Below are positions 1,243-35,758 of a DNA stretch of 64,000 bases, in pieces. Both the position numbers and the translations under genes were made by a program. Source of the stretch: Spironucleus salmonicida (lineage: Eukaryota). The notes beneath the pieces were generated by a model. The model ran no database searches. It saw only the letters and a program-made list of their open reading frames with translations, and was not told the origin of the DNA. The stretch's first letter is position 1. The number at the start of each line of letters is the position of its first letter. The stretch lies in assembly GCF_000497125.1 (NCBI RefSeq), contig NC_090599.1, positions 930,001-994,000 of the forward strand, in the 5' to 3' direction.

Positions 1243-3396
1243 ACTTGTAAGGTTAAAATAAAACTTTTGTATTTTAAAAGTATATATATATATATTATAT
1301 GTTTTAGAGTGGCAATATTTTTATTATATTCTGGTATATAATATTATGTTTTTCCACTTTATTTTCTATTCCTTACTTAATATTATATAGTATATAATAA
1401 CTTTTAGCTTTTGAAAACTACGAAACTATATATCTCCCACTTCTGTTGTTGTATACTTAAATCTTTTTAAGTATTATATCCAATATATAGTATAATAAAA
1501 TTGTGTAAAGTAGAAGTTTCCTACGTATGGGTAATGGCAATTATAAATTTTTAACGATGCCTCTGGGCTTAAGTCCAGATAATGGCATAATAGCTTGGCC
1601 GAAAGTTTAAATGCCAAAAAAGTTAAATTGTGAGTGGAGGCTCAGTTTCATTTTTAGCAAGACAGAACTGTCTGTTACAATAAGAATGAAACAATGAAAA
1701 TTAATTTAACAAAAATAAAATAGAAAACGACCTTTTATCATCAGGTTGGCCAAAACTATTAACGATTAAAATTTTTGAGTAGGAATTTTAAAAAAGTGAT
1801 TTTTCAAACTTTCAGTAGGCGACTAGCAATTGAGGGTCCTTGTGTTAACACATTTTGGTGGTGCTAGATGACTTCTCTGGATGACCTTGTGCGAAACATG
1901 ATCTAGGTTTGTCAGAGGGATGAGAACCGACATAAATATTATATATTCTATATATCGACAATATATGCATAAATTAGTTTTTTCTACGTATACAATTCTG
2001 CAAAAACTGAAATGTTGATATTTGTTGAGGTTACTAGTTTTTTAGTTTCTGTATTGTGAAAACAATACAAAATTTAATATAATATAAAAAATATACAAAT
2101 ATTTTTGTATAATATAAAATTAAAATTTAGATTTATGTATTAGTATTATATATATTACGAATATTAACGTTTTTCAATTTACTGTATATGTTAGTTTCTG
2201 GCAGAGATAGAAAAGGAAAAAATATAGTATATATATAATAGATATATATATATTCTATATTGTATTTTAAAAGTACTTATTTTTCAAACGATTCGTCCAA
2301 AAAGGTCAAAAAATCATTATTTTGACACCTGTTGTGGAGTGGTACTTTTTGAAAAAAGGAGTTATGTAATTATTATATAGGATTATGTTAAACTTATTTT
2401 TTTCAAATTTTCACACACTTTGTTATGGTGTAGTATTATGCAATTTTTCTATTGTTTAAAGTGGTGAAAAAATAATATATATATATATATTATAGGTATA
2501 TTTTTTTGGTTTATAATATTGGAAAGATTTGTATTTTACATTAGTTTTGTACATAATTACATCAAAATTATACATACAAATTTACTATAAAATTCAGTTT
2601 CTACAGTTTCTATAGATTATTCAATATACAGACATATTATATTTACATATATATTAATAAATGTATTTTAAAGTACTCAAATTTATCAACCAAACCCATC
2701 AACACTATCACAAAACTCACTATAAAATTTTATCAAAATTTTTTAACCCTTGTTTGAAAGCTTATTATTAAAAATATCAAATAAAACTATTTTTAATATA
2801 TATTATTATATGTTTTTAAATAAAATATTTACAATTAATTATTCTAGTTTCTTCTATAACTTGTGTGGCAATAATATATATATCTAAAATATACAATTAC
2901 TTTCCTTTTTTTAAGAGAGTATAATTTATTGAATATTACTATTATATTTGTATATTATATTAGTTATTATAAGTTTTCCTTTTCTTTTTTACATTAATAT
3001 AATTATAATTATATAAAATTAATAATTTAAAAATGGGTAATGATAATAAAAATTAAAGTGATCAAAAAAATAAAAGAAATGGAAATTTAAATTATTATAT
3101 AATGAATATAATTTTATTAAAAAAATAATGATCTATTCAGAGTTGAACCCAGTATTAGTAAAATTAAAAAAATCGCTTATAACATCTAAACAAAAATTAT
3201 TATTTATAGATTTTTGGAGTGGAAATATTTTTAAGAATTTAAATAAATGGATATTATTATTATATATATTTAGATATACCATGGAAAGAAGAAATATTAC
3301 GTATAATAAACAATAATATTAACAAATCAATTTATCGTAAAAATGGATAATTAATAATTTCATATATATAAAATAGTACTAAAAATAGTCTCTAGA

Positions 3397-4659
3397 ATAT
3401 ATTATATACAAAAACTAATTTCGTAGAAAAAGAAGTAATATATATTTACAATATTAAATGATAGTTTCAATTCTTTTTTTAAAATCATAATAATAACTTT
3501 ATATATGAATAATATAGTGTTTGGTGATGCTAAAAAACTATTTAGAAATCTACAAAACCGATCTATTTTTAGAATCAACGTTTTAGAATAAGTGTATATG
3601 AATATATAATAATATGTAGTTTGCCCAGAAAAAACGCTTCATTTTTATGATTATAGATAATTTACTATTATAATAGGTTTGGTAACTTCCGGATTTTTAG
3701 CCAACTGTAGATGTATAGGTTTTTCCTTTCCTAAACATAACCTTTTGGTATTTTTTTTCTAATAGTGATTCTGCATTGAACGTGAAAAAATTTACATCCC
3801 ATAGGATATAATACACTATCGTATTTTTTTAAATACCATTAAATGTTGCAACCACTGCAGACTAGTTAATAGGATATACGATAACGTTATACAAAAGCTG
3901 CTGCAAAAGCTCTTGCAGAAGTCTATAATGCAGAAGCTACTGAAAAATACCACGCAAAACGTTGGGACCATATCGAATGCTTACGGTATGACGTGGACAG
4001 ATTCTAAAGGATGGTTGAGTCATTGACTAATTAATTAAAAAGAACTTAAATTGTTCTCAGAAGTGGTGACACGCTTAGAATCTTACACCATCAATATAGC
4101 TTATCATATCTTGACGGTTAAATTGAACAGGAAAAAAAGTCATTAGAGATAACTAAATACGAATTAGAGGTGGCAGTCCACTAACATAGATATATTTAGG
4201 CATAAATCCTGGCATTACCTGCAGACCCTGCAAACTATACTTATGTATAAGGATAAGGATTATCCGAAGAAGTTTGGGCCGAACTCCTTGCGATAAAAAC
4301 ATAATACACAGATCAAGAAATATTAGACAGATATCAAACTTCTGACACATCAGAATCTATGTGATATAATATTATATTATTTTTTTTTTCAATTTAATTA
4401 TTTTAAAAGTGATTAATCTATATTAATGATCTGAATAAATTAACCAATCTTAAAATGGTTAAAGGTTTAAAGTTTTAAATGAATTAATTATTTCTAAATA
4501 TAAATATAACTATAACTATAAATAAATAAATAATAATTCAGGAGATGTAAAGTTAATAATATTTATTTAATCTTATACTATATTTTTTTCGATTTTAATT
4601 TATATTTATATTTATTAATATTACGGATCTAATTTGATGAAGATGTTTTAATAAATATA
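3397..4659 (+). repeat. Left terminal inverted repeat
   Basis: Near-perfect reverse complement of 19840-21101 (one homopolymer indel noticed); mirrored ORF-track entries 4153-4350 / 20149-20346. Confidence 0.95.
3843..4364 (+). CDS. Hypothetical 173-aa helical/coiled-coil protein encoded within the left TIR
   Basis: TAAATG start, open to TGA with TAR=Gln: MLQPLQTSQQDIRQRYTKAAAKALAEVYNAE...SESM; followed by T10-CAA. Confidence 0.7.
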
Positions 4660-4772
4660 TTTGTTTGATGAATATATGAATAATTCTATTACTGATAAGT
4701 GTACGTGTATAAATATGAATATGTTTTAATAAATAAATTAAAATTGAAAAAAACAAAGATAATTCTTGTTGA

Positions 4773-5735
4773 TCACTATCTCATAATAATACTTTAATCT
4801 AATGGTAACTATATATTAATAAGATCATATTAATTAGAATAAATATCTATAAATCCGTTATCTGGTCTAATAATAATAGTACCACTCTTTGCAGATCCTT
4901 TTTAAATAGTAATTGGGAACTTTTTAGCACAGTCTTTTGGCATAAGAATTAATCCACCTTACTGAGCACACTCATCATTTATAATAATTTTATTATCTAC
5001 GCTACCAGATTCTTTGATGAGAATATTACCAGTACAATCTTTACCAATAAATATATTTTATGAATCTTATATTTATATATTTTTAGAATTACTATCAATA
5101 TACACTTTTGATGAATTATTTATTTTTACATTCTCACAATCTGATATGAATATATTGCTACCAACTACATCACAACCTGTTATTTACTTAGTACCTTCAA
5201 ATAAACATAAATTTTCTGCAACATATTTAACATTTTACATATTTGGTAAACTAACTTAAACATACTAAGCAGTATCATTTACGAACCTTTTAGGATAACC
5301 GATAACAGATTATACATTATTTGGTAATGCTTGATCAGTTACTTATACAAATTATAAATTTTAGAAATCGAAAGACATGTCAATCAATCCTGGTCTGATA
5401 CGTCTAACAATATTATAATGTTACATAGTCTTTGAACTTGGGTATTAAAATTTAAAATCACATATATCTGAATCAACTTTAGTACATATAATAATATCAT
5501 CAGTAAAGTTTACTGATTTCAATAGTTTAACAGTGTCACTTTCTTTATCATATTCAACTACATATAATCTTTCTAAACTACTATAATCTTAATTAATATA
5601 AACTTAATCTTAAATTTTACCGTGTGCTGATAGTTGTACAACATAAGGACCTTCTTGTCCTTCTTCGTAACCTTTTATATTATCAATTTGAATAGGTGTT
5701 TAACCACCTTACATAATATTAATGAACCTTTACAT
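4773..5735 (-). CDS. Beta-helix-like repeat protein, paralog B (320 aa)
   Basis: TAAATG start, MQRFINIMQGG...; Asn/Ile/Cys/Gly-rich repeats (NIFISDCENVKINNSSKVYIDSNSKNI); TGA stop. Confidence 0.7.
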
Positions 5736-5780
5736 TTATTCATATAAAAAATAAAGTCAATAAATATATAATCATAATAA

Positions 5781-6800
5781 TCATAATAATATTACATCTT
5801 ATGTAGATTATATGTTTAACAAATCATTGTCACTTGTTCTAACATCTATCATACCATTATTATTTTTGATTCTCACTACTCCATTATTTCCTGAATCAGA
5901 TCTGATTGTTATCGAATTTGTTTTTGCAGATCCTTACTCTATAAATAATATTCCATTATTAAAACAATTGGATTCTATATTTATTTAACTATTAATGTTT
6001 CCAGAGTTGTTACCTATAAATACTTAACCAGAATATTTATCAATATGTCCATCTAGCTTTATATTTTAACAACCTTGTTCTATAATTATATTTTAACAAT
6101 CATTATTTATTAGTATATTTTATCCATTAATTATTTAATTTTATTATTTACCTATAAATATTATGTTGTTACCTTTACATTATATATTTTACATGTTGGT
6201 ACCTAGAACAATATTGTTACCAGTAATTTAACAATTGCTAATATGTGTTATGTTAACTTCACATAATAAATATTTTGAATAGTAACATAATTAAACATCT
6301 TAAGGTAATCTTAATGGTTGATAACTTATGTTACATTAATTTTATTTTACTAATATAAATTCATCTGGTAAATTTGGAGTACTAGCAGGAATAGTTATTG
6401 GAATAAAACAATTAATAATATTACCTAAATAATTAAATTATTAACATACAGTATTCACAAAATCAAACTAACAATGTAACTATTGTCTAGATCTGTTACA
6501 AATCAAGTAAAATTTGTTTTAATATTTAAAAGAGTAACACTCGTTACATATCTTAACATAAATAACATCATTTGTAAACTTATCAGAAACTAATTATATT
6601 ATCTCATTATTTATATTATCAAATGATATTATTTTAAGTTTCTCATTTTATAATTATATTGGATAGTCATCTACTTTATTCACAGATTATTATTCATTCT
6701 TTTTTTCAATTCTTATTTCTTAATAGAATCATTGATTATTTCCTAGTCTATATCTATAAATATTTATAACTATTTTGTAGTTACTACAATTCTACCATTA
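5781..6800 (-). CDS. Beta-helix-like repeat protein, paralog A; 5' end disrupted, start uncertain
   Basis: Open frame ~6700 to TGA at 5781 (GNNIVLGTNMQNIQCKGNNIIFIG...); C-terminus resembles paralog B; frame change near the T7 run at ~6700-6706. Confidence 0.6.
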
Positions 6801-6868
6801 TATGTTAAAGTTGGATATGATCATATTAGTTGTGCATTTAATTTAGCGAAAAATTTTCTAATAAACAT

Positions 6869-8056
6869 ATGCCACAGCAGTAAATGTTCATAAACATCTA
6901 GTCAACCAATGATATTAAAAGATTGAATATAACTTAATCAGATAAGATAATTTATCCAGAACAATTAAACGTATTAGAATTAACAAACATTAGTGTATAA
7001 ACTAATTAAAAATGTAACGACTTAGTATTAAAAGGAAGTAATGATGATATTATAATAGCTAGATTAGTTGATACTGAACTGTGTTCGTTTTTGTATAGAC
7101 ATGACAAATATTCTATAATTAAAAGATACAATGATAATATAAGTCCAAATTTTGATTTTAAAAATACAATTAAACACTAAGATCGTAGTGGATTAATATA
7201 ATATAAATAAGTAACTTAAAATTAATATAATTTAGATGGAATTGTTAGTATTAAAGATAGCATAGATCTATCAACATATTTATAAAATATAAATTTGTAA
7301 CTAAACTTGTTATAATCTTATTCTGATATCACCAAATTATAAGATATAACTGTTATTAACTCTTCTGATATTGTGTTAGGAAACTAGAGTTAAGGAATTA
7401 GTATACATGATAGTACAAATATTAGAGTAGATGATAATTGTTGTAGCGAGTCTGGAAATATAATTATTAATTCTTCTAATGATATTCACATAGGAAACAA
7501 TTGTGCAAACTATGGATTAATTTATATAAAAGATAATTGTTAAAATATTTATATTTAAGAATAGTGTAGTAATTCGGGTTAAATAATAATAAACAGTAAT
7601 TGTGGATCACTTGGTGGTTAAATTATTATACAAGATCAGTGTGCTAATTAAGGTTAAATATTGATAGGGAACTCTTGTGCAACTAATGGAGGTAAAATAT
7701 TGATAGGTAAACAACTATAATTAGTAAAAATATAAAATGGGACGACAACTAATCCAAATTCTATATTAAACATATGTTACGATTAATATAATTTTGACCA
7801 ACAAATAATATTATAGAAATCTTAGTAAAATCTTTAAATTATAAATGATCTACAAATATAGAGATACAAATTCCTATATTTAATAAACACTAAAGATTAT
7901 TATAATCATATCAAGAAGATACACTAAAATAATATTATAAATTTATAATAAGTATAGAATTATATAGCACCAGTAATAGATCTACAAAATCCAGACTAAA
8001 TACCAAATATGTTCGACACTGATTAATATGAGAATGTAAAAATTTTATTAAACTGA
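6869..8056 (+). CDS. Beta-helix-like repeat protein, paralog C (395 aa)
   Basis: MPQQQMFINI...DDIIIARLVDTELCSF...FDFKN, then repeats such as NSSNDIHIGNNCANYGLIYIKDNCQNIYIQEQCSNSGQIII; TGA at 8054-8056. Confidence 0.72.
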
Positions 8057-8061
8057 GTATA

Positions 8062-11000
8062 ATGAACGCTTCTATAAATGATTGTTTCAAAGCATGCATT
8101 GGTTCTTAATATATCTTCTGGATTTATGATAAAAGGCTATAAAGTTAGTACGCAACACACTATTTACCTACCTAATCTGACAATGATGCATTTTGGTAAG
8201 AGTATATAGAGAAGTTCATATCTTCACCAAATAACACTAATGTACAATACAAAAACAAAGCTATTGATCCTAAATATAATTCTGGGATACCATTTGACTC
8301 TGATATATACATAAATATAGATGAAAAGGAATATTTAGTCAGCTATTATTAAATCTTATTGTAAGGTAGATAAAAGTAGCTAGCTCAACAAAAATTAGAT
8401 AATATATAAAATATGAATGAAAATGATATTATGTAAACGTTTAAATAATTAGTAAGTGCTCACAAATTTATACCGAAATAAGATATTATGTAACTAATTT
8501 AATAAGCAACAGTAGAGTTCCTATCTTTCCTAAACAGTAGATTCGAAAAGTCTACTATAGGTGGTAATCCATAAGGTAATCCTTTAGGTATATAACCTAT
8601 AATTATGTTACGAGACAAATTAGACTTATCAAAATCTAAAAGTGATGAACATGTTTACAGATACGGTTTCCATATATATTATTTTGGTGTCAAGTTTACC
8701 TTTTAATGGAAATATTTTATAAAAGAGTACTTCACTTTCTCACCACAACTAATTTAAAATCTATAAATGTTGTTACCACACACTACTCTAGATTAATTCT
8801 TAGATACTTAACCTTTGGTAGGAGCAATTTCTCTTCCTTTATCTAATAGTAAAGCTAAATCTTATTCTAGATTTTATAATAGTGATAACAATAAATATGT
8901 AGATGTTACTACTGATATCTTATTATTATTAGCATTAAATCCTTTCTAAGGATAACCTGCTAAGATATAGTAACAGTACTCATATTTAATATTAGATGAA
9001 TTTTAATCTTTTGTAGAATATTTGTAGATTAACCAAACCCAAAGTTACGAACATGCAATAACTGTAGCTATTAATTTTATAATGTAACATTCAAAAGCTG
9101 ATCCATCTTTACTAGAATTATATAAATAGTATGGACATCCATCTTACCAACAAAGAATACAAATTATATAATATTTAATAAATATATATAGCGGTAAACA
9201 TAGATTTATGTTACTATAGTGTGCTTACTATTTAATAATGTGTGGTAACGATTAAACTACTTAACTAAAATATAATTCTGTACAACAAATACTTGATACT
9301 TATGTACCTTCTATTGATACTCCATAAGGTAATCCATAAGGTACTCCATAAGGTAATCCTATTATTGATAACAACGTTGATGATGAATATGTTGATGAAT
9401 CTGTTGATGATAGTACTACATAAGGTAATCCATTAGGTACTCCATAAGGTACTTCGTTAGATGGTGAAGTATCTCAAGTATCTTATTTATTAAATTCTGA
9501 TACACTTGTTAATACGTCATCAGAAGATACTGTTTGGTTAGAAAGTAAGAGAAATAGATTTCAAAAAAAATATCTATTATAGTATAGCAATAATTTTAGT
9601 ACGTTCATAAAAATAACCAATCAGTAGAGCAATCAATATTATTATTGTTCAAATTATATAATTCTATAAATAATACTAACTTATAATATAATTAATAATT
9701 AATATATTTATAAAATTTTGAAAGTTTTCTTGCTAAGTATCATTATGGAATATTTCTTCAAACTTATTATTCACAGTTGAGATCATCTACTTTAGATGTA
9801 TCAGTTTAAGAAACTTACACAGATTATATTGTAACATAATTATAAAACAAAGTAATAAGAAGATGTGATGGATTATTAGTATTTTAAGAATCTGCTATAA
9901 ATTATTCTGATTATAATAAATATCACTTTGATACTGGTGCTATACAAGTTCCGGATATTACAAACAAAATTATGGTTAATTTAAAAAATAATATATGTTA
10001 AAAGGTAGCTTAATATAAATTAAATTCTTATATAATATTTCTTGAAGCTTCTAGTAACTTTTCTAATAAACGGTGGCTTGCTAAATAAGAAGATTCTCCG
10101 AATATTGTTCAATACCGAGAAATTTCATAGTTATATTGTTAGATACGTTCCATAGATATGTATTAAACTAAATTCAGAACTACTGGTAAAGCTACAACAG
10201 ATAAATTGTAACCAAACTTATAGTTAAATCAATTAGATATAGATTAAGATGATAATATAATAGGAGTATTTAATGGTATAATATAATATGATAATAATAT
10301 TAATAACTTTTAATTACTAAATGCTGATCAATGTAGAACTAAACTAGTTACAAAATCTAATCTGTTTGAAATATAGTAATAGTTTATAGATAAGAATTAA
10401 TTCTTGATAACTCCAGAATAATTATCAAAAGATATTATAGAAGGATATGATGATAACTAGAGTTATTATTAAATTTATAAAGAAGTAGAATCAATTTACT
10501 CAGATATATTTAATGATGGAGACGACATCGAAGTATTTGAATTTATTATATTATAAGGTTTTACAAGAATGATTCATAAGACTATATCAAACTCTCACGT
10601 ATTGTTTTAATATGGTACTGGTTCAGATGGTAAAACATTCTCAACTTAAAACATAATGACAGGATTAGGTTCTGATGCAACATCTATACAAAAACGAAAG
10701 ATTTCAGCGTAAGGTTATTCATCTAAAGTTAAATCATCAGTATTACAAACTTCGAACACTTGTGCTAGTAGTCATGACAGTGGGGGTTATCCAGAATTAA
10801 TTGGTAAATATATTGCAGTAGTATCTGAATTAAATATTAATGTTGACCTAAGTGTAGATGTAATCAAATCATTATGTTGTGACACTTAAGTTAGTTGTAG
10901 AAAAGCAAATGCTTCTGATGTTGTTAGTTTTACAAATAAAGCTCTTATTATTATATAATCAAATTCTTATCCTAGATTTAATTAATAAATAGATGATGGT

Positions 11001-11673
11001 CTAGCAAGAAGATTCTTATTTTATAGCCATAAAGTTAAATTTATAAGTGAGTAATCTTATAATGACAAAACCGAATCAGAAAGAAGACAAAACAAAATAG
11101 CTAGTGTAGATATACGTACAAAAATGTCATCAGATCTTAGATATATAGATGTGTTTGGGTTTTATATGTTATAAACTTATATGAAGTGTATAAGAAGAAG
11201 AGATGATTATACTAAAGTTACCCCAATGTTATAATATGAAACTAAACAATTTTAAGATAATATTTAAAAATATATCACAGAGTGTTCTAATTTATTAGAA
11301 TTTAAACACATAAACTTCATCTACTTTAAATAATATATAAAGAATGTTTAAAATATAATAAAATCTTAAGAAGAATAGAAGAACCTTAATTAATAATAAG
11401 TTGTAATCATATTTATTAATTAAAAGTAATCTTTAGTATATATATATATGTTATTTTGACTTAACTAAGAAGATCTTGTGTAGGTTAACTGAGAATGACT
11501 TCTAAGCTAAAATGAACAACACAAATTTTATAGTAATAATTATAGACCACGTTTATGTAAGTTAAAACTTACAACAGATCAATGATGTGTTCTACACTTC
11601 GTTATCTACTAAGAACATAGACGTACATACGACAATATTGAAAACTATATAAAGCTTTGAAAATAACATCTGA
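8062..11673 (+). CDS. AEP primase - superfamily 3 helicase fusion (poxvirus D5 / ASFV C962R-like), frameshifted
   Basis: AEP-like motifs SGIPFDSD and YRYGFHIYY; Walker A YGTGSDGKT at ~10611-10637; IAVVSE, IIIQSN, DDGLARRF..HKVKF. Frame change at A8 (9563-9570); second frame stops at 11459, probable further shift in (TA)n ~11437-11449 extends to TGA 11673. Confidence 0.88.
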
Positions 11674-11747
11674 TAATTATATTCTTATAATTTTTTTCAA
11701 GAATTTTATCAAAAAAAATATTATATAAATAAATATTAGTGATCATC

Positions 11748-12728
11748 TCACACTAATAAAGTGTCCCAGTTCTTGTATAGATTACTAACAGGTTATTAAA
11801 CAATTAATAAGAAGTTATAATTTGACAACTGTTGATTAATCTAAATAGGTTAAGGTAAGTTCGTCACTCTATTTAATTGCTTATATTGTTCTATAAATTA
11901 AGGTACCTAAAAAGTATCTGTCTACAACTTTGGTAAACTATAATACAAATCTTATATCTCTTCAAAGTCTACTCCTTAAAATAAGAATATCATATTCATG
12001 TGCTATTTAAATAGTTTAGTTGCTCGGTTGATACTATGTAAAGATATACCTATAAACCATAATCCTAAATGTCTCTTTGTTGTTAATAGTTTTGCAAAGA
12101 GTTCGTGAGTTAAATTAGTTAACTCTGTCTTTTAATAATAATCAAATCTTAAAACTATCTTCTACCTTCTGATCCAATATCCATCAAAGTGTTGTCCAAC
12201 TGATTTATATAATTGACTAACCTGTATATGTTTCTAGTTATCATATTCAGCGAATAACAATTCTGGATACTTAGTCTTTACTGTTTAAATTTAATTTATA
12301 CATTATATGATTTTATCTTAGTCCTATATTTAACCATTTCTTAATGTAGATTGTTTAGTTAAGACTTTACTAACATCGTCACTCATATTTTAAAAGAATT
12401 TAAATAATTATTATAATTTGTTATCATCTGGTTAAATCTTAGTCTTCTTATCTTTAGTTTGTTTTAAAGTATCGTCGCTCTGTACTGAAGGGGATATAAA
12501 GATATTATGAGTAACTTTTTCATTATTTAATTAAGGATTATTTAAATCATATTTAGTAAGAGTAGCGTAATCTATATATTGTTGAGCAACCGTATTCATT
12601 TAGTATGATTTACCTGAACCTGGAGATCCCCAGAACCCATAGAATCCATAAGATATTAATTTAATATTATTGTTTTAACTAGAATCTATAATAAATTAAC
12701 ATTCGTCTGATTACACATTATATGCCAT
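11748..12728 (-). CDS. A32/FtsK-HerA-type genome packaging ATPase (326 aa)
   Basis: TAAATG start; Walker A GFWGSPGSGKS (~12607-12639), NIFISPS, Walker-B-like IVLRFDY, arginine-finger region LLTTKRHLGLWFIGISLH; intact frame to TGA. Confidence 0.82.
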
Positions 12729-12755
12729 TTATTAATTAGAAAAATATAATTTTGA

Positions 12756-15236
12756 TCATTTTATTATGTCTGGTCCTAAACATGTACCCGTTTATAATGC
12801 GTAATGTTATATATAACGACATCTATTAATTAAAGATAATTTATCATATACTTCTTATTTGTAGAATTAATTTTCAGAAAATAATTTATTGTAACTTGGT
12901 TAGAAAGTTGCACACACTTTAATTTAATCAGATATTATAATTTTATATTATGGTAACTCATCAGTAACTTAAAATATAATAAGGTTGTTGTTAGTATACA
13001 ATCTAGTTTGTACTACACATTTTATTTCTATCCTGGTATAATAATAGTATTAGCTTAATAATAACCTATAATGTTAAATTACTTTATTAGTTTGTTTATA
13101 CTATTCTTAACATATATTAAAGGTTTGTCATATATTGCAGCAAACAATTGTTTATGATTTTCAATAAATTAAGTATCATCATCTTTCATATATACATAAT
13201 TATCCCAAACTAAGTAAGATGTTAATGTATCATTGTTTAAGAATTCTTTTTCTAGTGATGCTTATTATTATATTAATTAACATATTTGCACTCTTAACTA
13301 ATTAGTAATTACTAATTAATTTATTTGTGTGAATACGTTAGCCATAGTATTGTTAGTATTCTTTTATACAATAATAATTGGAGTTAATTACTTTTACATA
13401 TTTGCTAATTATGTTTCTGAGGATTATTGTTTGGTAAGACAATCTTTTCTATATAAATATTCTTCATTAATATTTGATTAAATATATAATTATTTAATAA
13501 TATTTAGTAATTCTTCGTCACTAAAATATGATAAAGAGAAATTAAAGGTTACAAATTAATCCGTTCTAAGTATCTATAATAATTATTACTTAGGTATTGT
13601 TTTTATTTATAATTCAAATAAGAATTTGTAAATTTGGCTAAACATTTCTAATTTAAATCTGTCATACAGCTTTTTGGATTAATATTTAATTTGTTTTGTA
13701 TCTTCTAACAAGTTTGCATTATAACATTGTTTTCTTATTTTAAATAATAGTTATTATATATTTTAATCATCGTTATATATTTAAATCCATTTCTACTCAT
13801 GTTAAGTAATTTTTGAGAAGTTTGGAGCAGATGGTACGAATATATACGTTTTAACATATCTTTACTATTCTGGTAAATCTTAATGTGATTTAAATCTAAT
13901 AGATCTAGCAACAATTTATTTAAACATAGACATGTCTACTATATTATCAGTTATCATAAAATGGTTTACACATCTAAGACTTAACCCTGTCTGACCTATA
14001 GATGATAATATTAATAATTATATTTTGTATCCGTATTTATTTTCATAACTATTAAATATTTATTAAACTTTAGATAACTATATTCCAGATAACTCAGCCG
14101 TATATTTTAAATAAGTTGCTTGCTAATAATGCCTCTTATCTTCTTTGTTAGTATGTTATTATAACTGTTATCCACAAATCGAACATAACGTAGTCTGAGT
14201 AGGTCTTTCATTAAATAAAATGTAACCATTATGTAATAATATTTGTTCATATTGATATAACCCGAAATGAGTTTTAGTGTGATCAAAATATACTACTATT
14301 TTTTTTTTGATCTTTCTATTTTAATATATATTATAATTATTTTATGAAATTATAACTAATAGGTGAACACTTCTTAAGATTTTAAATAGATACTTTATCA
14401 CCTACCAAAATATGATTAGATAATATCTCAGTTCCATCATAATAATATTTAGGTAACAACAATTTAGCTCTATCCAATCCATCAGAGTTAGATGTTACTT
14501 ATAAATATTTATTATATTATTATTACCCGAGTTAACATCTAAACAAATTAAACTATTTTATTAAATTAGGTCCATTTTCTATTTATATGTTATTAGGAAT
14601 ATAGCTAGAATTAAGCTTAGTCCAACTTATAACATGTTCAGCTAATTTTTATATGTTTTAAGTATCATCACCTATACTCTAATTAAATATAGATAATATA
14701 GAATTAATTTCATCTACGTTAGAATTAATTAATGTACCAATAAGACATATAACTCTACAACTATTTAGATGTATTTTAAAGAAATCTCTAAACAGTTTAC
14801 CATAAGTGTTTAACTCTTTTTAATTATATAAATGTTAAAATTCATCTATGATTATATAACTACCTACGAATTAATCTTACAATTCTTAATAAGTATATCT
14901 CAACAGTCCTTATAAAGTAACGAATGTAATTTATAAAGTAGATTAACATTTATGTAAATCATTTTTGAATGCTTATACTGTAGTCTCATTTCCAATTACG
15001 ATTGCTCTATTAGTTATTTATTATATCATAGATATGGCAGTAGTAGTTATACCAGTTCCCATTACGAAGTCTAATATATACCATTTTAATTATTAATTAG
15101 CTAACATAAATATTCTTTAAGCATATAATTAATATTTCTTATATTAGAACTACGTACCAGTATTTTATATATTTAGTTTATCAACGTTAGTGTGCAAAGA
15201 TTAAAATCATAAATCATTTTTATCAATTTAAGTCAT
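12756..15236 (-). CDS. D6/D11-type SF2 helicase (VETF small subunit / ASFV D1133L-like), disrupted
   Basis: LDFVMGTGITTTA, YIIIDEFQHLYNQKELNTYG, CLIGT, Zn-like insert TTLCSICG..H, QIVARSIRFKSHQDLPEQQRYV. In-frame TGA at 15207-15209, frameshift at T10 (14299-14308), probable shift near 13030; 3' end tentative. Confidence 0.85.
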
Positions 15237-15294
15237 TATGTTAATCAATACAAAAAACACAACAATAGAAGATTATCTTTTTTTTCAAATATAA

Positions 15295-16113
15295 ATGTCT
15301 TCTTTTGGTATAGATCAGTACAATGCGTATGCTGGAAGTTTAGGAGAGTCTAGTGTACAATATTATAAAATCAAAAACATATTATTTAATTCAGCTTTCT
15401 ATTTAGGACCTGGACAATCTATTCCTAATTAAACATTCGATGACGATCATTACTTTACTAATATTTAAATTAATAGTATATATTTCTTAGGGAATTATTT
15501 TGATAAAGATAACATAAATGGGTTAAGCTTATACCATGCAGCATATTATTTCTCACCTACTGACAAATTCAACATGTACTTATTCTACGGAGATTTGTAG
15601 TTTACTAGGATGTTCATTCTTGGACATCTATTATAAGATGCTACTGCATAATTGAGTAGTTAAATCATGTTTACTTTCCATTTAATTAAACGAAACTGTA
15701 TATATGTATCTAAAGATATATATTAAATAACAATTGATAAATAAACATACCATGGTCAAATGAATGTTATGTGTTAAAGACTTTACCAGACCTAAGTTAT
15801 TATTGATAAATATAAATTATTTATAGAATTAGTATTAAAATTAAATGAAGAAACCAACAACAAACTAAAAGATTATAAAATATAAGCTAATGAATATTAA
15901 TAATATACTAAGCCAATTAAGTTATCATTATTATAAGATTATTATTAAACTATTAACCGATCGATATAATTATAAACTAATATGAATAAATTTAATACTT
16001 AAAATGTAAATGTTATATCATGTGTAAATATAGTAGATGTGTAGTTAGATAATTCAGTAGTTAACAACATGGATATAAAACAAAGTTGTAACATTAGTCA
16101 AGAACAATAATGA
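15295..16113 (+). CDS. Hypothetical 272-aa protein; C-terminal C-x-N-I...N..I.Q.C pattern reminiscent of NCLDV virion membrane/entry proteins
   Basis: TAAATG start, open with TAR=Gln; ends NVISCVNIVDVQLDNSVVNNMDIKQSCNISQEQQ. Confidence 0.65.
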
Positions 16114-16291
16114 ATTTGAAAAAGATAATTCAAAAAAAATCATATAAACTGATCATAAATTAAATTTATTTAATTACATACGTTCATTTAAATTTATTTA
16201 AGTTTATTTAAGTTAATCAGTTTAATAAAAACATATGTTTTATATATTATATTAATTTACGTATTATTAATTTGATGAATACTATAAAAGT

Positions 16292-16906
16292 TCATTTAGA
16301 AAAACATTACATACATGATTTAGAAATTTCAAATATGTCATTAAATATGCTTAGAAGCTTTTTTTTGTTTTTCTCGAATATAAAGGTTATATATTATTTT
16401 AATAAAATATAAAAATCATCATTAACTTCAATGCGTTTAGACGTATCATCACTAGATAAATATTATATTATACTATTTAATACTACTTATTGTCTATACT
16501 ATCCTAACTTTTTACCTTTAAAACATGACTCAGCTGTTGCCATTAATCCAACAATAACTTAATAAGCTGACTCAACAATGTTCTAATTAACGTAAGCTAC
16601 TTTAACATTTTGCATTATTTATAATGAATATTTTTAATATTTCTTGTTTTGGTTTTATGTTATTATTGATTATTTTAAATTATCTTTACTTATATTATTT
16701 AACAACAGGTCTGTTCTCTACACTAACGTTTCTTAACTGTTTACAGAACTTCCTAAATTATTTACTACAGTGTTCACTATATTACTTTCTATTTTTTCGT
16801 CTATATGTTCATTTTACAGTTTGTAAACTTCTTTTGAAAAATCTTATGAAAAGTCTTCAGACTCTTCTATTATATCTTTAAGAGTTTGGTTAATATCAGG
16901 TGGCAT
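16292..16906 (-). CDS. Hypothetical 204-aa protein, acidic N-terminus, C-terminal CxxC
   Basis: MPPDINQTLKDIIEESEDF...IVGLMATAESCFKGKKLGQ...SKSCMQCFSK-TGA; intact frame. Confidence 0.65.
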
Positions 16907-16946
16907 TTGTTACTGTGAAAAATATTTTTTTATTGGCAGACATCAA

Positions 16947-18080
16947 ATGGGTATTAATGGATTACTGAACTATCTTTAAAGAACAAATAACATATAATAC
17001 GAATAATTTAATTAGTTAGTATTCGTAAAACACAATATAGTAGATTTTAATAACCTTTTATACAAATAATAAAACAATACTTAACGAGAATTTAAACCAA
17101 TAAATAGAATATAAAATGTACTAAACTGTTGTAAATAATTTGCTAATAATCCTGATAAATAATTCTACATAGTGTTAGACCCAATTGGAAAAACTAGAAA
17201 ATAACCTATCATAGATTTTAAATAATATTAAGATATTATAACAACTTATAGCGATCGTAAATGTGAACTAATGTTTAATAATAGCGATATATGTGCTAAA
17301 TATAATAACGGATATGTTGATAGTTACTACCCTTTTAAATATAAGAAAGCAGATTTTAATCATTGGTAGACTGCTAAATTTCCTATATATAATGATATAA
17401 TATGTATGTAATATTTTAAAGATCTACCTAACGTTGAAGTAATATATGCTCCAGTAGAAGCAGATATAACGATAGGCTAATTAGTTTAACGACTATAAAC
17501 TGAAGCTGAAGTAACAAACAATGATATAAATATATTTTCATATGATTCTGATATGTTAATTTATTCTAATGGGGTTAATATGTAAACTAAATAATATATT
17601 ATTAACATGGACACTATTAATAAACAATTACATTTTAAATATATTTATATAATTAAATATATTTCTATAACATATGCAGATTATTTTAATTTAGAAGAAT
17701 AACATTTGTAAACATTATTTGATAAAGTATATCGTTAAAACATACAACAAGTTAATCTTAAGTTTATGTTAGACAACATAAAATATTCTAAATATGATTA
17801 AATAGATCAAATCTAATTATAACTATCTTAATTTAATATTAATACACTAGGTTGTGCTATTATTTTTAATTTATTATTTCTACAACCTGTTTATGATTAG
17901 CATTTGACAACAAGTTAATTGATAGAATAATATTATAATATTAATTATTAATATAAATTAAAACTTGATAGTAACATATTTTAAAATATAACATTTTTAA
18001 TGAACAACTTAGAAATAATTTAGAACCTATCTCCTACAGAATTATAGACTATACGTAATAACAAGATAACAGTTATATGA
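16947..18080 (+). CDS. FEN1/XPG-family PIN-domain 5' nuclease (377 aa; poxvirus G5-like role possible)
   Basis: MGINGLLNYL, IVDFNNLLY, YIVLD, APVEAD, FSYDSDMLIY, ADY motifs in canonical order; intact frame. Confidence 0.85.
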
Positions 18081-18209
18081 TATTTTAATTTATATTTAGT
18101 GTTACTCTCTATTCTTTTTTTCAATTTTAATTTATTTGTATATTTATATTTATTATTTATTAAACTTTAAACTTACAACTATACATGTACCTTTATCAGT
18201 AATAGAATT

Positions 18210-18596
18210 ATTTATATATTTATATATTTATATATTTATATATTTATATATTTATATATTTATATATTTATATATTTATATATTTATATATTTATATATT
18301 TATATATTTATATATTTATATATTTATATATTTATATATTTATATATTTATATATTTATATATTTATATATTTATATATTTATATATTTATATATTTATA
18401 TATTTATATATTTATATATTTATATATTTATATATTTATATATTTATATATTTATATATTTATATATTTATATATTTATATATTTATATATTTATATATT
18501 TATATATTTATATATTTATATATTTATATATTTATATATTTATATATTTATATATTTATATATTTATATATTTATATATTTATATATTTATATTTA
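18210..18596. repeat. 8-bp tandem repeat (TATTTATA)n
   Basis: Direct reading; gives the spurious IYLYIYIF ORF. Confidence 0.95.
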
Positions 18597-18749
18597 TTTA
18601 TTAAATTAACTTCATAAACTCAAACTTACACACATATTTATATTTATTAAACAAACCTCTTAAACAACTTTATGGATAACTTCATGGATAACATCATGTA
18701 TCAGAATTGGAACTTCAACTTAAACTTAGATAACTTACAAATATTATTT

Positions 18750-18919
18750 ATTATTTATATTTATATTTATATTTATATTTATATTTATATTTATATTTAT
18801 ATTTATATTTATATTTATATTTATATTTATATTTATATTTATTTTTTTTTATTTATATTTATATTTATATTTATATTTATATTTATATTTATATTTATAT
18901 TTATATTTATATTTATATT

Positions 18920-18966
<47 letters not shown>

Positions 18967-19849
18967 TTATATTTATATTTATATTTATATTTATATTTAT
19001 ATTTATATTTATATTTATATTTATATTTATATTTATATTTATATTTATATTTATATTTATATTTATATTTATATTTATATTTATATTTATATTTATATTT
19101 ATATTTATATTTATATTTATATTTATATTTATATTTATATTTTATATTTATATTTATATTTATATTTATATTTATATTTATATTTATATTTATATTTATA
19201 TTTATATTTATATTTATATTTATATTTATATTTATATTTATATTTATATTTATATTTATATTTATATTTATATTTATATTTATATTTATATTTATATTTA
19301 TATTTATATTTATATTTATATTTTATATTTATATTTATATTTATATTTATATTTATATTTATATTTATATTTATATTTATATTTATATTTATATTTATAT
19401 TTATATTTATATTTATATTTATATTTATATTTATATTTATATTTATATTTATATTTATATTTATATTTATATTTATATTTATATTTATATTTATATTTAT
19501 ATTTATATTTATATTTATATTTATATTTATATTTATATTTATATTTATATTTATATTTATATTTATATTTATATTTATATTTATATTTATATTTATATTT
19601 ATATTTATATTTATATTTATATTTATATTTATATTTATATTTATATTTATATTTATATTTATATTTATATTTATATTTATATTTATATTTATATTTATAT
19701 TTATATTTATATTTATATTTATATTTATATTTATATTTATATTTATATTTATATTTATATTTATATTTATATTTATATTTATATTTATATTTATATTTAT
19801 ATTTATATTTATATTTATATTTATATTTATATTTATATTTATATTTATT
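18750..19849. repeat. 6-bp tandem repeat (ATATTT)n with a ~43-nt poly-T at 18922-18964
   Basis: Direct reading. Confidence 0.95.
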
Positions 19850-21101
19850 AAAACATCTTCATCAAATTAGATCCGTAATATTAATAAATATAAATATAAA
19901 TTAAAATCGAAAAAAATATAGTATAAGATTAAATAAATATTATTAACTTTACATCTCCTGAATTATTATTTATTTATTTATAGTTATAGTTATATTTATA
20001 TTTAGAAATAATTAATTCATTTAAAACTTTAAACCTTTAACCATTTTAAGATTGGTTAATTTATTCAGATCATTAATATAGATTAATCACTTTTAAAATA
20101 ATTAAATTGAAAAAAAAAATAATATAATATTATATCACATAGATTCTGATGTGTCAGAAGTTTGATATCTGTCTAATATTTCTTGATCTGTGTATTATGT
20201 TTTTATCGCAAGGAGTTCGGCCCAAACTTCTTCGGATAATCCTTATCCTTATACATAAGTATAGTTTGCAGGGTCTGCAGGTAATGCCAGGATTTATGCC
20301 TAAATATATCTATGTTAGTGGACTGCCACCTCTAATTCGTATTTAGTTATCTCTAATGACTTTTTTTCCTGTTCAATTTAACCGTCAAGATATGATAAGC
20401 TATATTGATGGTGTAAGATTCTAAGCGTGTCACCACTTCTGAGAACAATTTAAGTTCTTTTTAATTAATTAGTCAATGACTCAACCATCCTTTAGAATCT
20501 GTCCACGTCATACCGTAAGCATTCGATATGGTCCCAACGTTTTGCGTGGTATTTTTCAGTAGCTTCTGCATTATAGACTTCTGCAAGAGCTTTTGCAGCA
20601 GCTTTTGTATAACGTTATCGTATATCCTATTAACTAGTCTGCAGTGGTTGCAACATTTAATGGTATTTAAAAAAATACGATAGTGTATTATATCCTATGG
20701 GATGTAAATTTTTTCACGTTCAATGCAGAATCACTATTAGAAAAAAATACCAAAAGGTTATGTTTAGGAAAGGAAAAACCTATACATCTACAGTTGGCTA
20801 AAAATCCGGAAGTTACCAAACCTATTATAATAGTAAATTATCTATAATCATAAAAATGAAGCGTTTTTTCTGGGCAAACTACATATTATTATATATTCAT
20901 ATACACTTATTCTAAAACGTTGATTCTAAAAATAGATCGGTTTTGTAGATTTCTAAATAGTTTTTTAGCATCACCAAACACTATATTATTCATATATAAA
21001 GTTATTATTATGATTTTAAAAAAAGAATTGAAACTATCATTTAATATTGTAAATATATATTACTTCTTTTTCTACGAAATTAGTTTTTGTATATAATATA
21101 T
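19840..21101 (-). repeat. Right terminal inverted repeat
   Basis: Reverse complement of 3397-4659. Confidence 0.95.
20135..20656 (-). CDS. Second copy of the TIR-encoded 173-aa protein
   Basis: Mirror of 3843-4364. Confidence 0.7.
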
Positions 21102-23045
21102 ATTTTGGGTGTTTTTATAACTTATTTAAATCATATAATATCTATATATTAAAATGCTGTATAAAAACAGATTCCTAATATTTATTAATATTATTTATAA
21201 TATTGTGATAAATTTACATTATTATTAAGCATATAATAGTATAAGTCTATTTTTATGACAAGAGACAAGAAACCAGCTACTGGTTTAAATTATTTATTAC
21301 TATAAATAAATAATATTTAATTGCCTTGATTTTACTTTTTATACACCACTCTAAATTGTATAGAATTTTTAGAAAGATAATATTGATATAAAATATATAA
21401 TATTAAATCAAAGAAATCATATATACAGTTTTTAAATATAACATATACATATATTAACATATATAAAATCATTATAACCAATAAAATAATTTTCATAAAA
21501 TATATATTATATATATGTTAATAAATATATCTATAGATTTTTATATTTTACAAAATATCGTAAGGGCAGTGCCTTATATATTTCAAAACTATTATAATTA
21601 TTATACTTATAAGTACGAAGTATATTCTGGGCTAGATCAATATATTGTATTAAATATCTTAGGTCATTTATTTAAGAAATATTGCCTAATACGATATAAT
21701 ATAAATCTTTAGTGGTGTAGGTTAAATGAAGATTCAATGGTATTATATTCATGCAGCGATCAAATGTAAGTATTAGAATACTTTACGCATATTCTCATCA
21801 TAGGGTTTATTTCTATTGACTATATTAACTTCGAAATTATTAAATCTAGATAGCCATACTTTTAAGTGTTCAGTAGATTCAAAGACCTGAGCATCTACAG
21901 AATATGAATCTAGAGTCTAGTAATGGTGTTTCTATTTATATATCTCAAAATAAACACAAAATTTACCGAGTGTAAAGTGTTACTTACATACGGGATATTT
22001 CAATAGTTCATAAAGAAACTATAGCTAATACTAATTGCAGATTCTTAGCCAATACCATCCGCATGAAATTACTTCCAATTATTGTCGATGCCTGCCAGAG
22101 ATCTGTATTTCTAGATCCATTAAGAGGTACATTCTGGATTATTTACTTTATTAAGATCGAAACTGCATTTAGATAATAATTTATTATTATCACTATTTTT
22201 GCATAGACTTTATTTATTATAAAATTTGCTCCTAAAGGCCATATAGTATCAACTTGCTGGTTAGTTTAATAAGGTAAACGTAAAAATTAACTTATAGCGC
22301 GCTAGGAGGCCTATTTTAGATGAAATAATTGCAGTAAAATGTTTACTAAATATTATTAAGCACGCTATCTTGCTTCATCACCTAAAGAGACGATTTACAT
22401 TAGATATCGCTGAATTAAACATCAGCAATGCTAATAAAATAATAGCATATACTTCTAAAGTAAGTAAGATACTATATATAGTTTATCTATTTTCTCAATA
22501 TAAGACATATCAATATTTTTACACAACGTTACCTATTGAACTATATAATCAATTTTTGCAATATAATTATTACAGAATAATAATTACTTATAACTCAATT
22601 TTTAAAACAAAATATATCTTGTATAAACCAATTTGCCAGAACACCAATAATAAAATTTATTGTATTTAAAACACATTATATGTTAACATTACATATTTAC
22701 CATTATTACAATTAAAAAACTAATTTAGTTTGTGTTTTATTTATATAATAATGCAATATGCAATATTTTATTTTAAATAAATTCTTAGCAAGATTCTTTC
22801 TCTCGAGGATTACACATTTTTAAGTATTTTAAGATATTTAATTAGATATTCTTTCATAAAAAATTACAATTAAAATTATCCGCGACAATTACTTTCTAAT
22901 TAAACCTATTCTCCACCACCTAGCCATTCTTAGAGTAAAACCACAATTTTCCACATTTACAACATCTGACCTTTCCAAAATAAAACCTAAAATTCATATC
23001 ATTCATAACTTAAAACCTCTAATTTCCCAGATTCTCAATTTAAAA

Positions 23046-26000: not shown

Positions 26001-26621
26001 AACTTTACACAGACCGAGTGCTGCGAGGGCCACTGTACGGACTGCGAAATGCGCGCGCCGGGCATCTGCACTAAATGTGACATTAAATCCGATTTCCCGT
26101 TCCTTTTTAACGGAAAATGCGGCAGCTGCGAGTCCGCTATAGAGAATTGCGCGAAGTGCGAGCAGGCTGACTTGTTCAGCGCAGTTTCTTGCGCATCTTG
26201 CATGGCTTAGTTTACGGGGGCGACTTGCGAGACTGACTGTGGCCCGGGCATGAGGCAGTTCAACGGAGGCTCCTGCCAAAGTGCGTCCTGTGGCACGCAG
26301 CTCGAGTGCAGCGGCAACGGCGTCTGTGCTGGCGGCCTGTCGGGGGACCGAATGTGCTCCTGCGCTGAGAATTTCGTTGGCGTGAACTGCGAGGGCTGCG
26401 GCGAGGGCTTCGAGCTCAAAAACGGAGCCTGCGAGGCGGTAAACGGAAGCTTTGGAGCTGGAAAAATAGCTGGAGTGGTAATTGGCGTTGGAATTGGAAT
26501 TGTGGCCATGGCAGCGATTAGCATATGGTGTCTGTGTAAGAACGGGAGCAGGAAGGCGAGGTTTGTAGACCAGGGGCTGATGTAGGGCGAAAATGGGAGC
26601 CAGGTGGCGATTGTGGACTGA
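23046..26621 (+). CDS. Cysteine-rich membrane protein with CxxC/furin-like and EGF-like repeats, C-terminal TM (1191 aa)
   Basis: Six ORF-track pieces are in one frame, joined by TAA/TAG; TM IAGVVIGVGIGIVAMAAISIWCL; TGA at 26619-26621. Confidence 0.9.
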
Positions 26622-27139
26622 GCGGAGTAGCGAGTCGAGATAACAGCAGGAAAATGAGAAAACTAACTTATAAGAACACCAGATGAAGTGATATAATGAC
26701 GATTAGCATATTGAAAAATTTGGTAACTAGAAATTCGGAGGCAGCTCTAGAATCGTGGAGCGAAGTTTTAGTATTCGTTGTATACTAGATGGAACTATAA
26801 ACCGCGGAGAAACATCAAGTGGCGAAAGCAAACTGATATAACAATATATCTAAACTTGAATTTACAGTACTATTATAGCATTTTCTATTTCTAGGTCGTG
26901 GTTTAACGCCGGAAAAGCACCCGAATCTTCGCCGTTGAAAGTCGAAATTTTGCTTTCGCTTCCGGATATATCGTTATGTCAGTTGCATGCTAAACTTTGC
27001 GAATGCTATAACGGCTGCGAGACCCTCAAATTGCACAATTTCGTGACAAAGAGGCGCTGCTAATCCGAGGAGTGGAAAATTTCGAAAGTTCGGAAACGCC
27101 GGTGCTCTGTACAACTGTAAAATATAGAATCTAAAATGC

Positions 27140-29609: not shown

Positions 29610-29697
29610 ATTATGGAGCGTAGGGTGTAGACCCGGCGGCGGGCTAGAGCGGAGCGCTGGATGGTTGCCATGCAAACCAGGCAGACCCCTCATTCAT

Positions 29698-31127: not shown

Positions 31128-31202
31128 GCGGTTTTGCAATTCGGCTGGTGCCAATCTTTAGCCTCTCCGGGAGGCCCAGGACACAGTGGCGGCGAACCTG
31201 GC

Positions 31203-32024: not shown

Positions 32025-32113
32025 TTGTGGAAACGCCAATTAGTCGCGTTGTTCGCAATCGTATTATATTCCACAACCCCAGAAAGAAACCCCTCCCTCA
32101 GCACAAATTACCA

Positions 32114-35745: not shown

Positions 35746-35758
35746 GGCCCCTTCCAAA

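Follow-up and report, generated by a model that had tools for sequence, protein, structure and literature searches.

A virus depends on the ribosomes of its host. When the genetic code of a host changes, its viruses should therefore either be lost or be carried along into the new code. Which of these outcomes is represented in a 64,000-nucleotide stretch of Spironucleus salmonicida DNA (contig NC_090599.1, positions 930,001 to 994,000 of the forward strand; hereafter the window, in whose own coordinates all positions are given)? Positions 1243–21566 of the window hold an inserted segment, the element. An earlier note had proposed that its genes are viral and are written in the reassigned code of the host, in which TAA and TAG stand for glutamine (Gln; translation table 6, or code 6), and that this recoding is older than the integration. 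We found that both codons are sense codons in the element and that TAA means Gln. Moreover, two of the genes are related to genes of nucleocytoplasmic large DNA viruses (NCLDV), an empty counterpart of the insertion site is present in the same window, and relatives using code 6 occur in metagenomes. The element is most likely a piece of some large DNA virus with kinship to Nucleocytoviricota that natively read TAA and TAG as Gln, having been recoded in its free lineage before integration. If so, it is the second outcome that is visible here.

Reading frames of the element

In the standard code, the interior of the element contains almost nothing. The longest open frame in 4700–18080 has 97 codons, and the only two standard-code open reading frames (ORFs) of at least 100 aa in 1–22000 both lie inside a simple repeat at 18.1–19.9 kb. 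If only TGA is treated as a stop, the same 4700–18080 contains 17 frames of at least 300 codons, five of them of at least 500. By comparison, 300 second-order Markov simulations gave on average 4.13 frames of at least 300 codons (maximum 10) and 0.23 of at least 500, and none of the 300 yielded four or more frames of the latter size. Coding density over 4660–18080, estimated with a greedy set of non-overlapping genes, is 0 in the standard code and 0.91 in table 6; it is 0.52 with TAA alone as a sense codon and 0 with TAG alone. The frames read in code 6 are the following.

3843–4364, plus strand: ORF of 173 aa inside the inverted repeat, 13 in-frame TAA/TAG; second copy at 20135–20656 on the minus strand
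4773–5735, minus strand: g1, Asn/Cys-rich paralogue family, 25 TAA/TAG
5781–6683, minus strand: g2, paralogue of g1 and g3, 26 TAA/TAG; start codon uncertain, with no ATG in the first 60 codons
6884–8056, plus strand: g3, paralogue of g1 and g2; frame open from 6830; predicted short-strand repeat region at residues 160–285
8062–9570, plus strand: g4, N-terminal (primase) part of a D5/C962R-like primase-helicase; frame left at the A8 run 9563–9570
9570–11459, plus strand: g5, C-terminal (SF3 helicase) part of the same primase-helicase; frame open from 9534
11748–12728, minus strand: g6, protein of 326 aa with a P-loop (GSPGSGKS)
12596–14308, minus strand: g7b, C-terminal half of an NPH-I (D11)-like SF2 helicase
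14283–15197, minus strand: g7a, N-terminal half of the same helicase in another frame, with a DExH-like motif
15295–16113, plus strand: g8, ORF of 272 aa, 20 TAA/TAG
16947–18080, plus strand: g9, ORF of 377 aa starting MGINGLL

In-frame TAA and TAG are as abundant as the earlier note had described, with 13–64 per code-6 frame. The 11 trimmed, TGA-terminated frames comprise 4181 codons, among them 300 TAA, 57 TAG, 77 CAA and 20 CAG. The 357 TAA/TAG thus represent about 8.5% of all codons, or one codon in twelve. They account for 79% of Gln-type codons in the element, where TAA is the main Gln codon, as opposed to 12% (23/194) for a set of four host genes from the window. The share of Gln-type codons among all element codons is 10.9%, compared to 2–3% Gln in standard-code homologues, so that the code leaves a measurable mark on what the proteins are made of. 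It had also been stated that the genes end in TGA. This is true of all 11 frames, but it holds by construction once TGA is the sole stop; since the frames are defined by TGA, the observation is partly circular. The presence of TAA and TAG within conserved motifs was exactly as claimed: TAA encodes the Q of LFQYGTGSDGKT and the Q of FKQIVARS, while the glutamines of SHQDLPEQQR are encoded by TAA, then by TAG and TAA.

Two genes of NCLDV type

The most informative gene is the primase-helicase. Both of its frames align to a single 1161-aa ORF of a metagenome relative (L002, described below), g4 (frame 8062–9780) with 31% identity (168/542; phmmer 2.6e-49) and g5 (frame 9534–11459) with 32% (199/624), and therefore represent one gene. 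An exhaustive HMMER search with g5 against 1.84 billion representative proteins returned 29 homologues. One of them, P0004, is the window's own annotated product (100% identical) and another, P0033, comes from the same locus. The best of the others are primase-helicases of 1100–1180 aa encoded on metagenome contigs, with 26–30% identity. In PHROGs, g5 matched phrog_1156, 'DNA primase', with an E-value of 6.6e-10. When the profile of the primase-helicase family (A1) was compared with PDB, it matched African swine fever virus (ASFV) C962R (1.3e-15) and poxvirus D5/E5 (about 2e-14) over the SF3 helicase domain; no solved structure matched the N-terminal primase part.

The second gene is the helicase split into g7a and g7b. 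The only PDB match of g7b is vaccinia NPH-I (6rfl_Y), with a modest score (6.1e-6), and it extends across motif VI, with FKQIVARSIRFKSHQDLPEQQRYV of g7b aligned to a 24-residue stretch of the vaccinia protein. g7b also matches a standard-code ORF of the metagenome locus L010 (8e-21). For g7a there were weak matches to SNF2-rel_dom and ResIII and none to PDB sequences. The NCLDV-type features of the element are thus a D5-type primase-helicase and an SF2 helicase of D6/D11 (NPH-I) type, and the label 'viral', as used in the earlier note, would rest on these two, one a replication and the other a transcription gene. That part of the claim stands, although no capsid gene was found to accompany them.

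Recoded relatives in metagenomes

Scanning metagenomes with the primase-helicase family profile led to 10 loci (L001–L010) out of 74 pattern matches. The best matches, L001–L004, are readable only under table 6, with standard-code ORFs covering little or none of them. L002 (3.8 kb, 28% GC) consists of the single 1161-aa ORF mentioned above, which has 64 TAA/TAG. L003 (45% GC) lies at the end of a 91-kb contig and encodes a 1143-aa orthologue with 25 TAA/TAG; the fetched part of this contig carries tightly packed frames on the same strand, with a coding density of 0.29 in the standard code and 0.88 in table 6. L001 and L004 are 77–81% identical to L003. Where 10 TAA/TAG codons of L003 could be compared with L001, two face CAA, seven face TAA/TAG and one faces AAG. 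The remaining loci, L005–L010, are more distant and use the standard code (density 0.83–0.91). Beyond g4, g5 and g7b, none of the 11 window proteins matched ORFs of L001–L010, and no shared gene order could be made out beyond these. Two scans of viral contigs, one starting from P0005 and the other from profile A1, turned up no relative that could be confirmed.

An unrooted tree of the helicase core was built from 27 rows and 280 columns. A branch with SH-aLRT 94 sets the four code-6 rows apart, with standard-code proteins P0005–P0007 beside them, inside a starred clade. The branch kept the same support after TAA/TAG had been masked as X and one long-branch row dropped. All rows outside the code-6 group use the standard code, and the simplest reading would be one code switch on the stem of this group. 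The helicase cores of the window and L002 are only 37% identical, and the switch is therefore old relative to the insertion. The proposal that recoding predates integration is thereby upheld, since L001–L004 share the code and group with the window gene.

Several short public 'proteins' (86–179 aa) turned out to derive from code-6 relatives whose genes had been broken up at TAA/TAG when called in the standard code. Among them, P0008 has 99% identity to L002 and P0014 has 100% to L004, while P0011, P0013, P0015, P0017 and P0025 are 35–58% identical to L002 or L003 and hint at further recoded members. In a separate observation, near the primase-helicase of the standard-code locus L005 there are two genes (1538–2272 and 18679–20460), one for a protein with DUF285 repeats (1.1e-21) and one for a protein with a KilA-N domain (1.1e-6).

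The meaning of TAA and TAG

The code of the host can be read from its own genes in the window, among them the following two.

23046–26621, plus strand: host cysteine-rich membrane protein gene, 8 in-frame TAA/TAG; inverted duplicate at about 51.5–55.1 kb on the minus strand
37469–39421 (frame open from 37466), plus strand: host AP-2 alpha-adaptin gene, 7 in-frame TAA/TAG

The adaptin frame matches Adaptin_N (7.4e-41) and AP-2 alpha (2vgl_A, 6.4e-42). Within the membrane protein gene pair, CAG at 24933–24935 is opposite TAG (reverse complement of 53213–53215), one of 24 differences between the two copies. The swap and the open adaptin frame are both as originally described. Because cysteine-rich membrane protein and adaptin genes are open only in this way, and because of the CAG/TAG swap, the host must stop at TGA and read TAA and TAG as sense.

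For the element, we examined which residues of homologues face its TAA and TAG codons, using 22 long standard-code homologues; short ones were excluded, some of them being fragments of code-6 relatives. Opposite helicase TAA, Gln occurs in 30/221 cases (13.6%) compared to 120/4342 (2.8%) elsewhere, and the rate at CAA/CAG positions is 9/63. With all 28 homologues, Gln is the commonest residue opposite helicase TAA/TAG (40/292, against 143/5179 elsewhere and 10/72 at CAA/CAG). Codetta-style profile log-odds for 29 columns with window TAA gave 7.3 nats for Gln and 2.6 for the next residue, Arg, and control codons decoded correctly (AAA as K, GAA as E, TAT as Y). With the three code-6 genes taken together, TAA scores 21.6 for Gln and 11.6 for Lys. 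At the level of individual positions, one helicase TAA faces a column with Gln in 17 of 25 homologues and one TAA of g7b corresponds to the motif VI Gln of vaccinia NPH-I. In the element, both TAA and TAG are read as sense and TAA is Gln.

The same data bear on the idea that a standard-code virus has decayed here into pseudogenes, its TAA and TAG being nonsense mutations acquired after integration. Two genes are indeed frame-shifted, and AT pressure favors new TAA. However, such decay would have had to leave 357 TAA/TAG with no in-frame TGA in frames as long as 767 codons, something that the simulations come nowhere near. It should also place random residues opposite TAA, which were not seen: these positions are enriched five-fold in Gln, just as CAA/CAG positions are. 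In addition, the window, L002 and the paralogues share conserved TAA/TAG positions, and the same pattern recurs in relatives at 28% and 45% GC. We consider this explanation hardly credible.

A homologue alignment of this kind had been proposed as the test. It gave a clear answer for TAA, enriched in Gln at the CAA/CAG rate. For window TAG there are seven aligned columns, too small a number for a verdict; they favor Asp (3.3) over Glu (1.0) and Gln (0.4), and 0 of 14 residues are Gln. TAG might then have another meaning in the element or be read through, its code differing from that of the host. It is also the case that single-codon reassignments are reported to be commoner than double ones in the giant-virus catalogue (PMC13524828). 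Yet treating TAG as a stop lowers coding density from 0.91 to 0.52. Window TAG faces a Gln-type codon of L002 in 6 of 17 cases against a background of 55/1048 (p=2e-4), and for the clade as a whole (31 columns) TAG scores 5.8 for Gln and 2.0 for Glu. Of 127 ordered pairs with TAA/TAG among the paralogues g1–g3, 34 have a Gln-type codon on the other side (background 112/1408), and one invariant column reads TAA/TAG/TAA. Together with the CAG/TAG swap in the host, the clade comparison and the paralogue column suggest that TAG is Gln in the element itself, too, and a separate meaning of TAG appears quite improbable.

The insertion and its empty counterpart

The structure of the insertion is defined by the following features.

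1243–21566: whole inserted segment, 20,324 bp, 21% GC; flanks uninterrupted at the paralogous empty site
56581–56582: paralogous empty site; the insert would fall between these two bases
1243–3396: AT-rich part left of the inverted repeat, no recognisable gene; its code-6 frames look composition-driven
3397–4659: inverted repeat, left arm; 1262 matches, 0 mismatches and one 1-nt indel (3751) against the right arm
18223–19848: (TATATT)n array, some 270 copies long and ending directly against the right arm of the inverted repeat; GC 3% over 18081–19839
19840–21101: inverted repeat, right arm, with 465 bp between it and the right-hand junction

Comparison of the filled and empty sites gives exact junctions, as for an endogenous viral element: 1130–1242 matches the reverse complement of 56694–56582, and 21567–21648 that of 56581–56500. 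The empty site is a paralogous locus in the same window and not an allele or a sister strain. On the left, 18–1242 is paralogous to the reverse complement of 57805–56582 with 1137 matches and 103 mismatches (92% identity). On the right, the sequence from 21567 is paralogous to the reverse complement from 56581 downward with 94 mismatches in about 14 kb. The high-identity host duplication thus begins exactly at the right junction while left-flank paralogy is only 92%, which suggests that gene conversion between the host copies halts at the insertion heterology. The insert sits between two divergently oriented host surface-protein genes. There is no target-site duplication either at the insert junctions or at the ends of the inverted repeat. 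Position 3843, where the range in the earlier note begins, is not the end of the element but the first base of an ORF that lies within the left arm of the inverted repeat; the insert starts at 1243. The code-6 frames of 1243–3396 matched none of the metagenome loci or proteins compared.

The near-identical inverted repeats had been interpreted as terminal and as a sign of recent integration. Their arms are identical as reported, but they are internal, 2154 bp (left) and 465 bp (right) from the insert ends. For this reason, and because the region homogenises inverted duplicates, the insertion can be dated only poorly from how alike the arms are.

We also considered a Polinton/Maverick and rejected it: Pfam and PHROGs gave no match to a protein-primed PolB with rve integrase or to a capsid, penton or protease module, the repeats are not terminal and a target-site duplication is missing.

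More generally, the element could be selfish DNA of a non-viral kind, for example a giant transposon or plasmid-like replicon, long resident in code-6 eukaryotes. The code would then simply be its home code, and no virus would have adapted to it. Long identical inverted repeats fit such an element, as does the failure to find a capsid, packaging, polymerase or integrase gene; moreover, phages and plasmids can have D5-type primase-helicases as well, and the best PHROG match is a phage 'DNA primase' family. Against this, it is proteins of poxviruses and asfarviruses that provide the best relatives of known structure for both recognisable genes, and the repeats, as noted, neither reach the insert ends nor come with a target-site duplication. 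The relatives reside on densely coded contigs of 32–174 kb with KilA-N and DUF285 genes, and the only products of the window's genome in the representative search, P0004 and P0033, represent one locus. A selfish element therefore seems unlikely to us, though it is the alternative we take most seriously.

State of the copy and assembly support

One correction to the earlier note concerns the two large genes, the primase-helicase and the second helicase, each of which is split over two frames. In the primase-helicase, the frame changes at the A8 run 9563–9570, where contigs of both DNA runs (X1 and X2) agree with the window. The two halves of the NPH-I-like gene meet in the T10 run 14299–14308; here the X1 contig agrees with the window and X2 has one base fewer, and with the X2 run length both halves fall in one frame. 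All four X2 differences are one-base losses in runs of 7–10 and may be homopolymer error. There are six homopolymer runs of at least 8 in 4660–18100, and the only two in coding sequence are those at the frame changes. The frame breaks could be inactivating mutations, errors or sites where slippage is tolerated.

The contigs, taken from Logan, cover the interior of the element (4700–18080) and not its junctions. The k-mer depth of the element contig is 148.2 in X1 and 11.7 in X2, other contigs of these runs that touch the stretch by short matches having 149–176 and 10–12.1, respectively; k-mer depth is not a copy number and provides a weak hint only. Two further runs that are guessed to be RNA (X5 and X6) contain 10 short identical pieces (166–338 nt, depth 2.4–5.6), which have no bearing on transcription.

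Could the junctions have been made by the assembly, the DNA of another code-6 organism or of a free virus in the culture having been misjoined to the host? The coverage of the run contigs, confined to the interior, leaves room for this, and the assembly may itself have been made from X1, which would then be no independent witness. However, both flanks meet exactly at one point of the paralogous locus, which is unexpected from a random misjoin, and the element contig has a depth near that of other contigs in the same runs, for what this hint is worth. An assembly chimera is thus very improbable.

Remaining frames and gene starts

For the other frames the searches gave little, and all Pfam matches of element frames are below curated cut-offs. 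The paralogy of g1–g3 is supported by E-values of 1e-8 to 1e-14. An AlphaFold2 model of g3 (3 sequences) has a mean pLDDT of 46 and reaches 60–81 for residues 160–285 only. The match of g6 to RNA_helicase (0.0052) is among those below cut-off, no PDB sequence matched it, and its assignment as an A32-like packaging ATPase is no more than a lead. g8 has no Pfam or PHROG match. g9 has no Pfam, PHROG or PDB match, its comparison with PDB giving chance-level Atg8 hits only (E 0.05 or worse), and the C-terminal part had a pLDDT of 35 in single-sequence AlphaFold2 modeling. g9 may resemble an XPG/FEN1-like nuclease. A word-based protein search found no match for residues 170–420 of g7b or for g3.

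Some features of gene arrangement may be added. The 3′ end of g7b overlaps the 5′ end of g6 on the same strand by 133 nt (12596–12728), which may follow from TGA being the only stop. TAAATG is found at 5 of about 9 gene starts (3843, 5735 on the minus strand, 6884, 12728 on the minus strand and 15295) compared to 25 of 510 ATGs in the stretch, and a T-run lies 10–17 nt upstream of most of these starts. Such starts presumably resemble the initiator of poxvirus late promoters. A word of the GTGAAA..TTT type, found at 3782, 6846, 8036 and 16915, is located 21–61 nt upstream of four window gene starts; it also precedes the L002 helicase (word at 289) and one L003 gene (word at 340). As a promoter word, G[TC][GA]AAA..TTT was dropped, since 6 occurrences against 4.2 expected are no enrichment.

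The host region

The first 22,000 nt of the window have 20–27% GC, except for the 5% GC simple repeat at 18–20 kb, and beyond 22000 the GC content is mostly 44–64% with AT-rich spacers. This GC-rich part carries cysteine-rich membrane protein genes and the AP-2 alpha-adaptin gene, all of them open only with TAA and TAG as sense. The type of surface-protein gene looks like that of a host resembling Hexamitinae diplomonads.

The host part has inverted repeats of its own. A duplication of about 14.4 kb (21567–35980 and 42169–56581), the one with 94 mismatches in about 14 kb, carries surface-protein genes. Another inverted repeat pairs about 27–29.5 kb with 59–63.8 kb (985 shared 25-mers at one offset), and frames 28004–29539 and 61683–63785 have long identical peptide stretches in common.

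Weighing the viral reading

A number of results count against a natively recoded viral fragment. Every Pfam match is sub-threshold and the NPH-I match is modest, and 7 of the 11 frames have no recognisable relative in Pfam, PHROGs or the metagenome loci. Genes for capsid, DNA polymerase, integrase and packaging were not found in Pfam and PHROGs searches. In particular, a double jelly-roll capsid had no Pfam or PHROG match in 10 frames, but so remote a fold may escape a sequence search and a fragment may lack the gene; family B DNA polymerase, A32 packaging ATPase and VLTF3 likewise had no Pfam or PHROG match, g6 offering only a P-loop. Composition does not help either: host intergenic DNA (311–1242, 21567–23045 and 55103–57518) has 22–26% GC next to host genes of 48–63%, so that the 21% GC of the insert is about that of host non-coding DNA and is no marker of foreign origin. 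With both large genes frame-broken, the copy may be dead. As to the code, the seven window TAG columns discussed above do not favor Gln, and in L002 alone TAA scores 12.4 for Gln and 12.0 for Lys. Finally, the argument from the tree depends on where its root lies.

These points notwithstanding, we regard the natively recoded viral fragment as the best explanation. Recoding came first, because recoded relatives exist and because gaining 357 in-frame sense TAA/TAG after insertion is implausible.

How could such an element have come about? It would have entered between the divergent host surface-protein genes without a target-site duplication, probably by end-joining. Its genes would be translated only in hosts in which TAA and TAG do not terminate translation, presumably by tRNA-Gln species of the host and with a release factor (eRF1) that ignores UAA and UAG. 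No tRNA genes were found in the window or in six relatives' loci, and for this reason we think that the element relies on the tRNA-Gln of the host. AT pressure may then have made TAA the main Gln codon. In this scheme, the code would act as a barrier in both directions, since every gene would be cut many times in a standard-code cell, and in the present host the TAA/TAG stops of a virus using the standard code would not end its genes. The integrated copy itself is probably inactive at present.

A further-reaching claim, which we put forward with some hesitation as a genuine possibility, is that the element is the first host-anchored member of a deep poxvirus/asfarvirus-like clade that switched to TAA/TAG = Gln as a lineage. 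To our knowledge, no DNA virus of diplomonads has been described. If the claim is true, diplomonads are hosts of giant-virus relatives, the 91-kb L003 contig and several mis-called public protein fragments belong to free viruses of code-6 protists, and the code is a two-way host-range barrier for the whole clade. Even the narrower viral reading would supply a concrete host for a recoded large-DNA-virus lineage. It also has a practical side: standard-code gene callers fragment such viruses, as the two public 'proteins' that are pieces of L002 and L004 illustrate.

Comparison with known systems

At the level of single genes, the element resembles D5/E5 and C962R in the SF3 helicase domain and NPH-I in motif VI, although identity is low. 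Unlike D5, C962R and NPH-I, the window copies are split at homopolymer runs and have 8–9% TAA/TAG codons.

Among mobile elements, the Tlr elements of Tetrahymena thermophila offer a parallel. They are read in the ciliate code. They are virus-like, have long inverted repeats and reside in a host with TAA/TAG = Gln, as the present element does. They are reported to carry capsid genes and to belong to the Polinton supergroup, whereas no such genes were found here.

Another case is that of the endogenous viral elements of the oxymonad Streblomastix strix, which according to Bellas et al. 2023 (PMC10120064) use the TAA/TAG = Gln table of their host; the authors see in the matching code a sign of long virus–host association. 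The likeness to our case lies in viral DNA being integrated into a metamonad with TAA/TAG = Gln and using the same table. However, the S. strix elements are described there as small polinton-like viruses found through their capsid genes, whereas the genes here are of poxvirus/asfarvirus type with no capsid found, and the host is diplomonad-like, not an oxymonad.

The other precedent is a metagenome genome, Imitervirales IM_12 of GVMAGs V2 (2026; PMC13524828), which is best read in code 6 and is the one code-6 genome that this catalogue lists. Its coding density rises from 13% in the standard code to 93% in table 6, and the same collapse under the standard code is seen in the window (0 and 0.91) and in L003 (0.29 and 0.88). 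IM_12 is hostless, whereas the element lies in the chromosome of a code-6 host; the likeness drawn between the two is one of code. The paper states that direct infection of a code-6 host is not known for any giant virus.

We found no literature report of an endogenous or giant-virus element in diplomonads or Spironucleus, although the supplementary lists of PMC13524828 and PMC10120064 may name the genome, and the words 'virus' and 'viral' are absent from the diplomonad genome papers checked. The principle, endogenous viruses written in the TAA/TAG = Gln code of their host, thus has a precedent. What is new is the lineage of the host, the kind of virus and the connection with recoded relatives in metagenomes.

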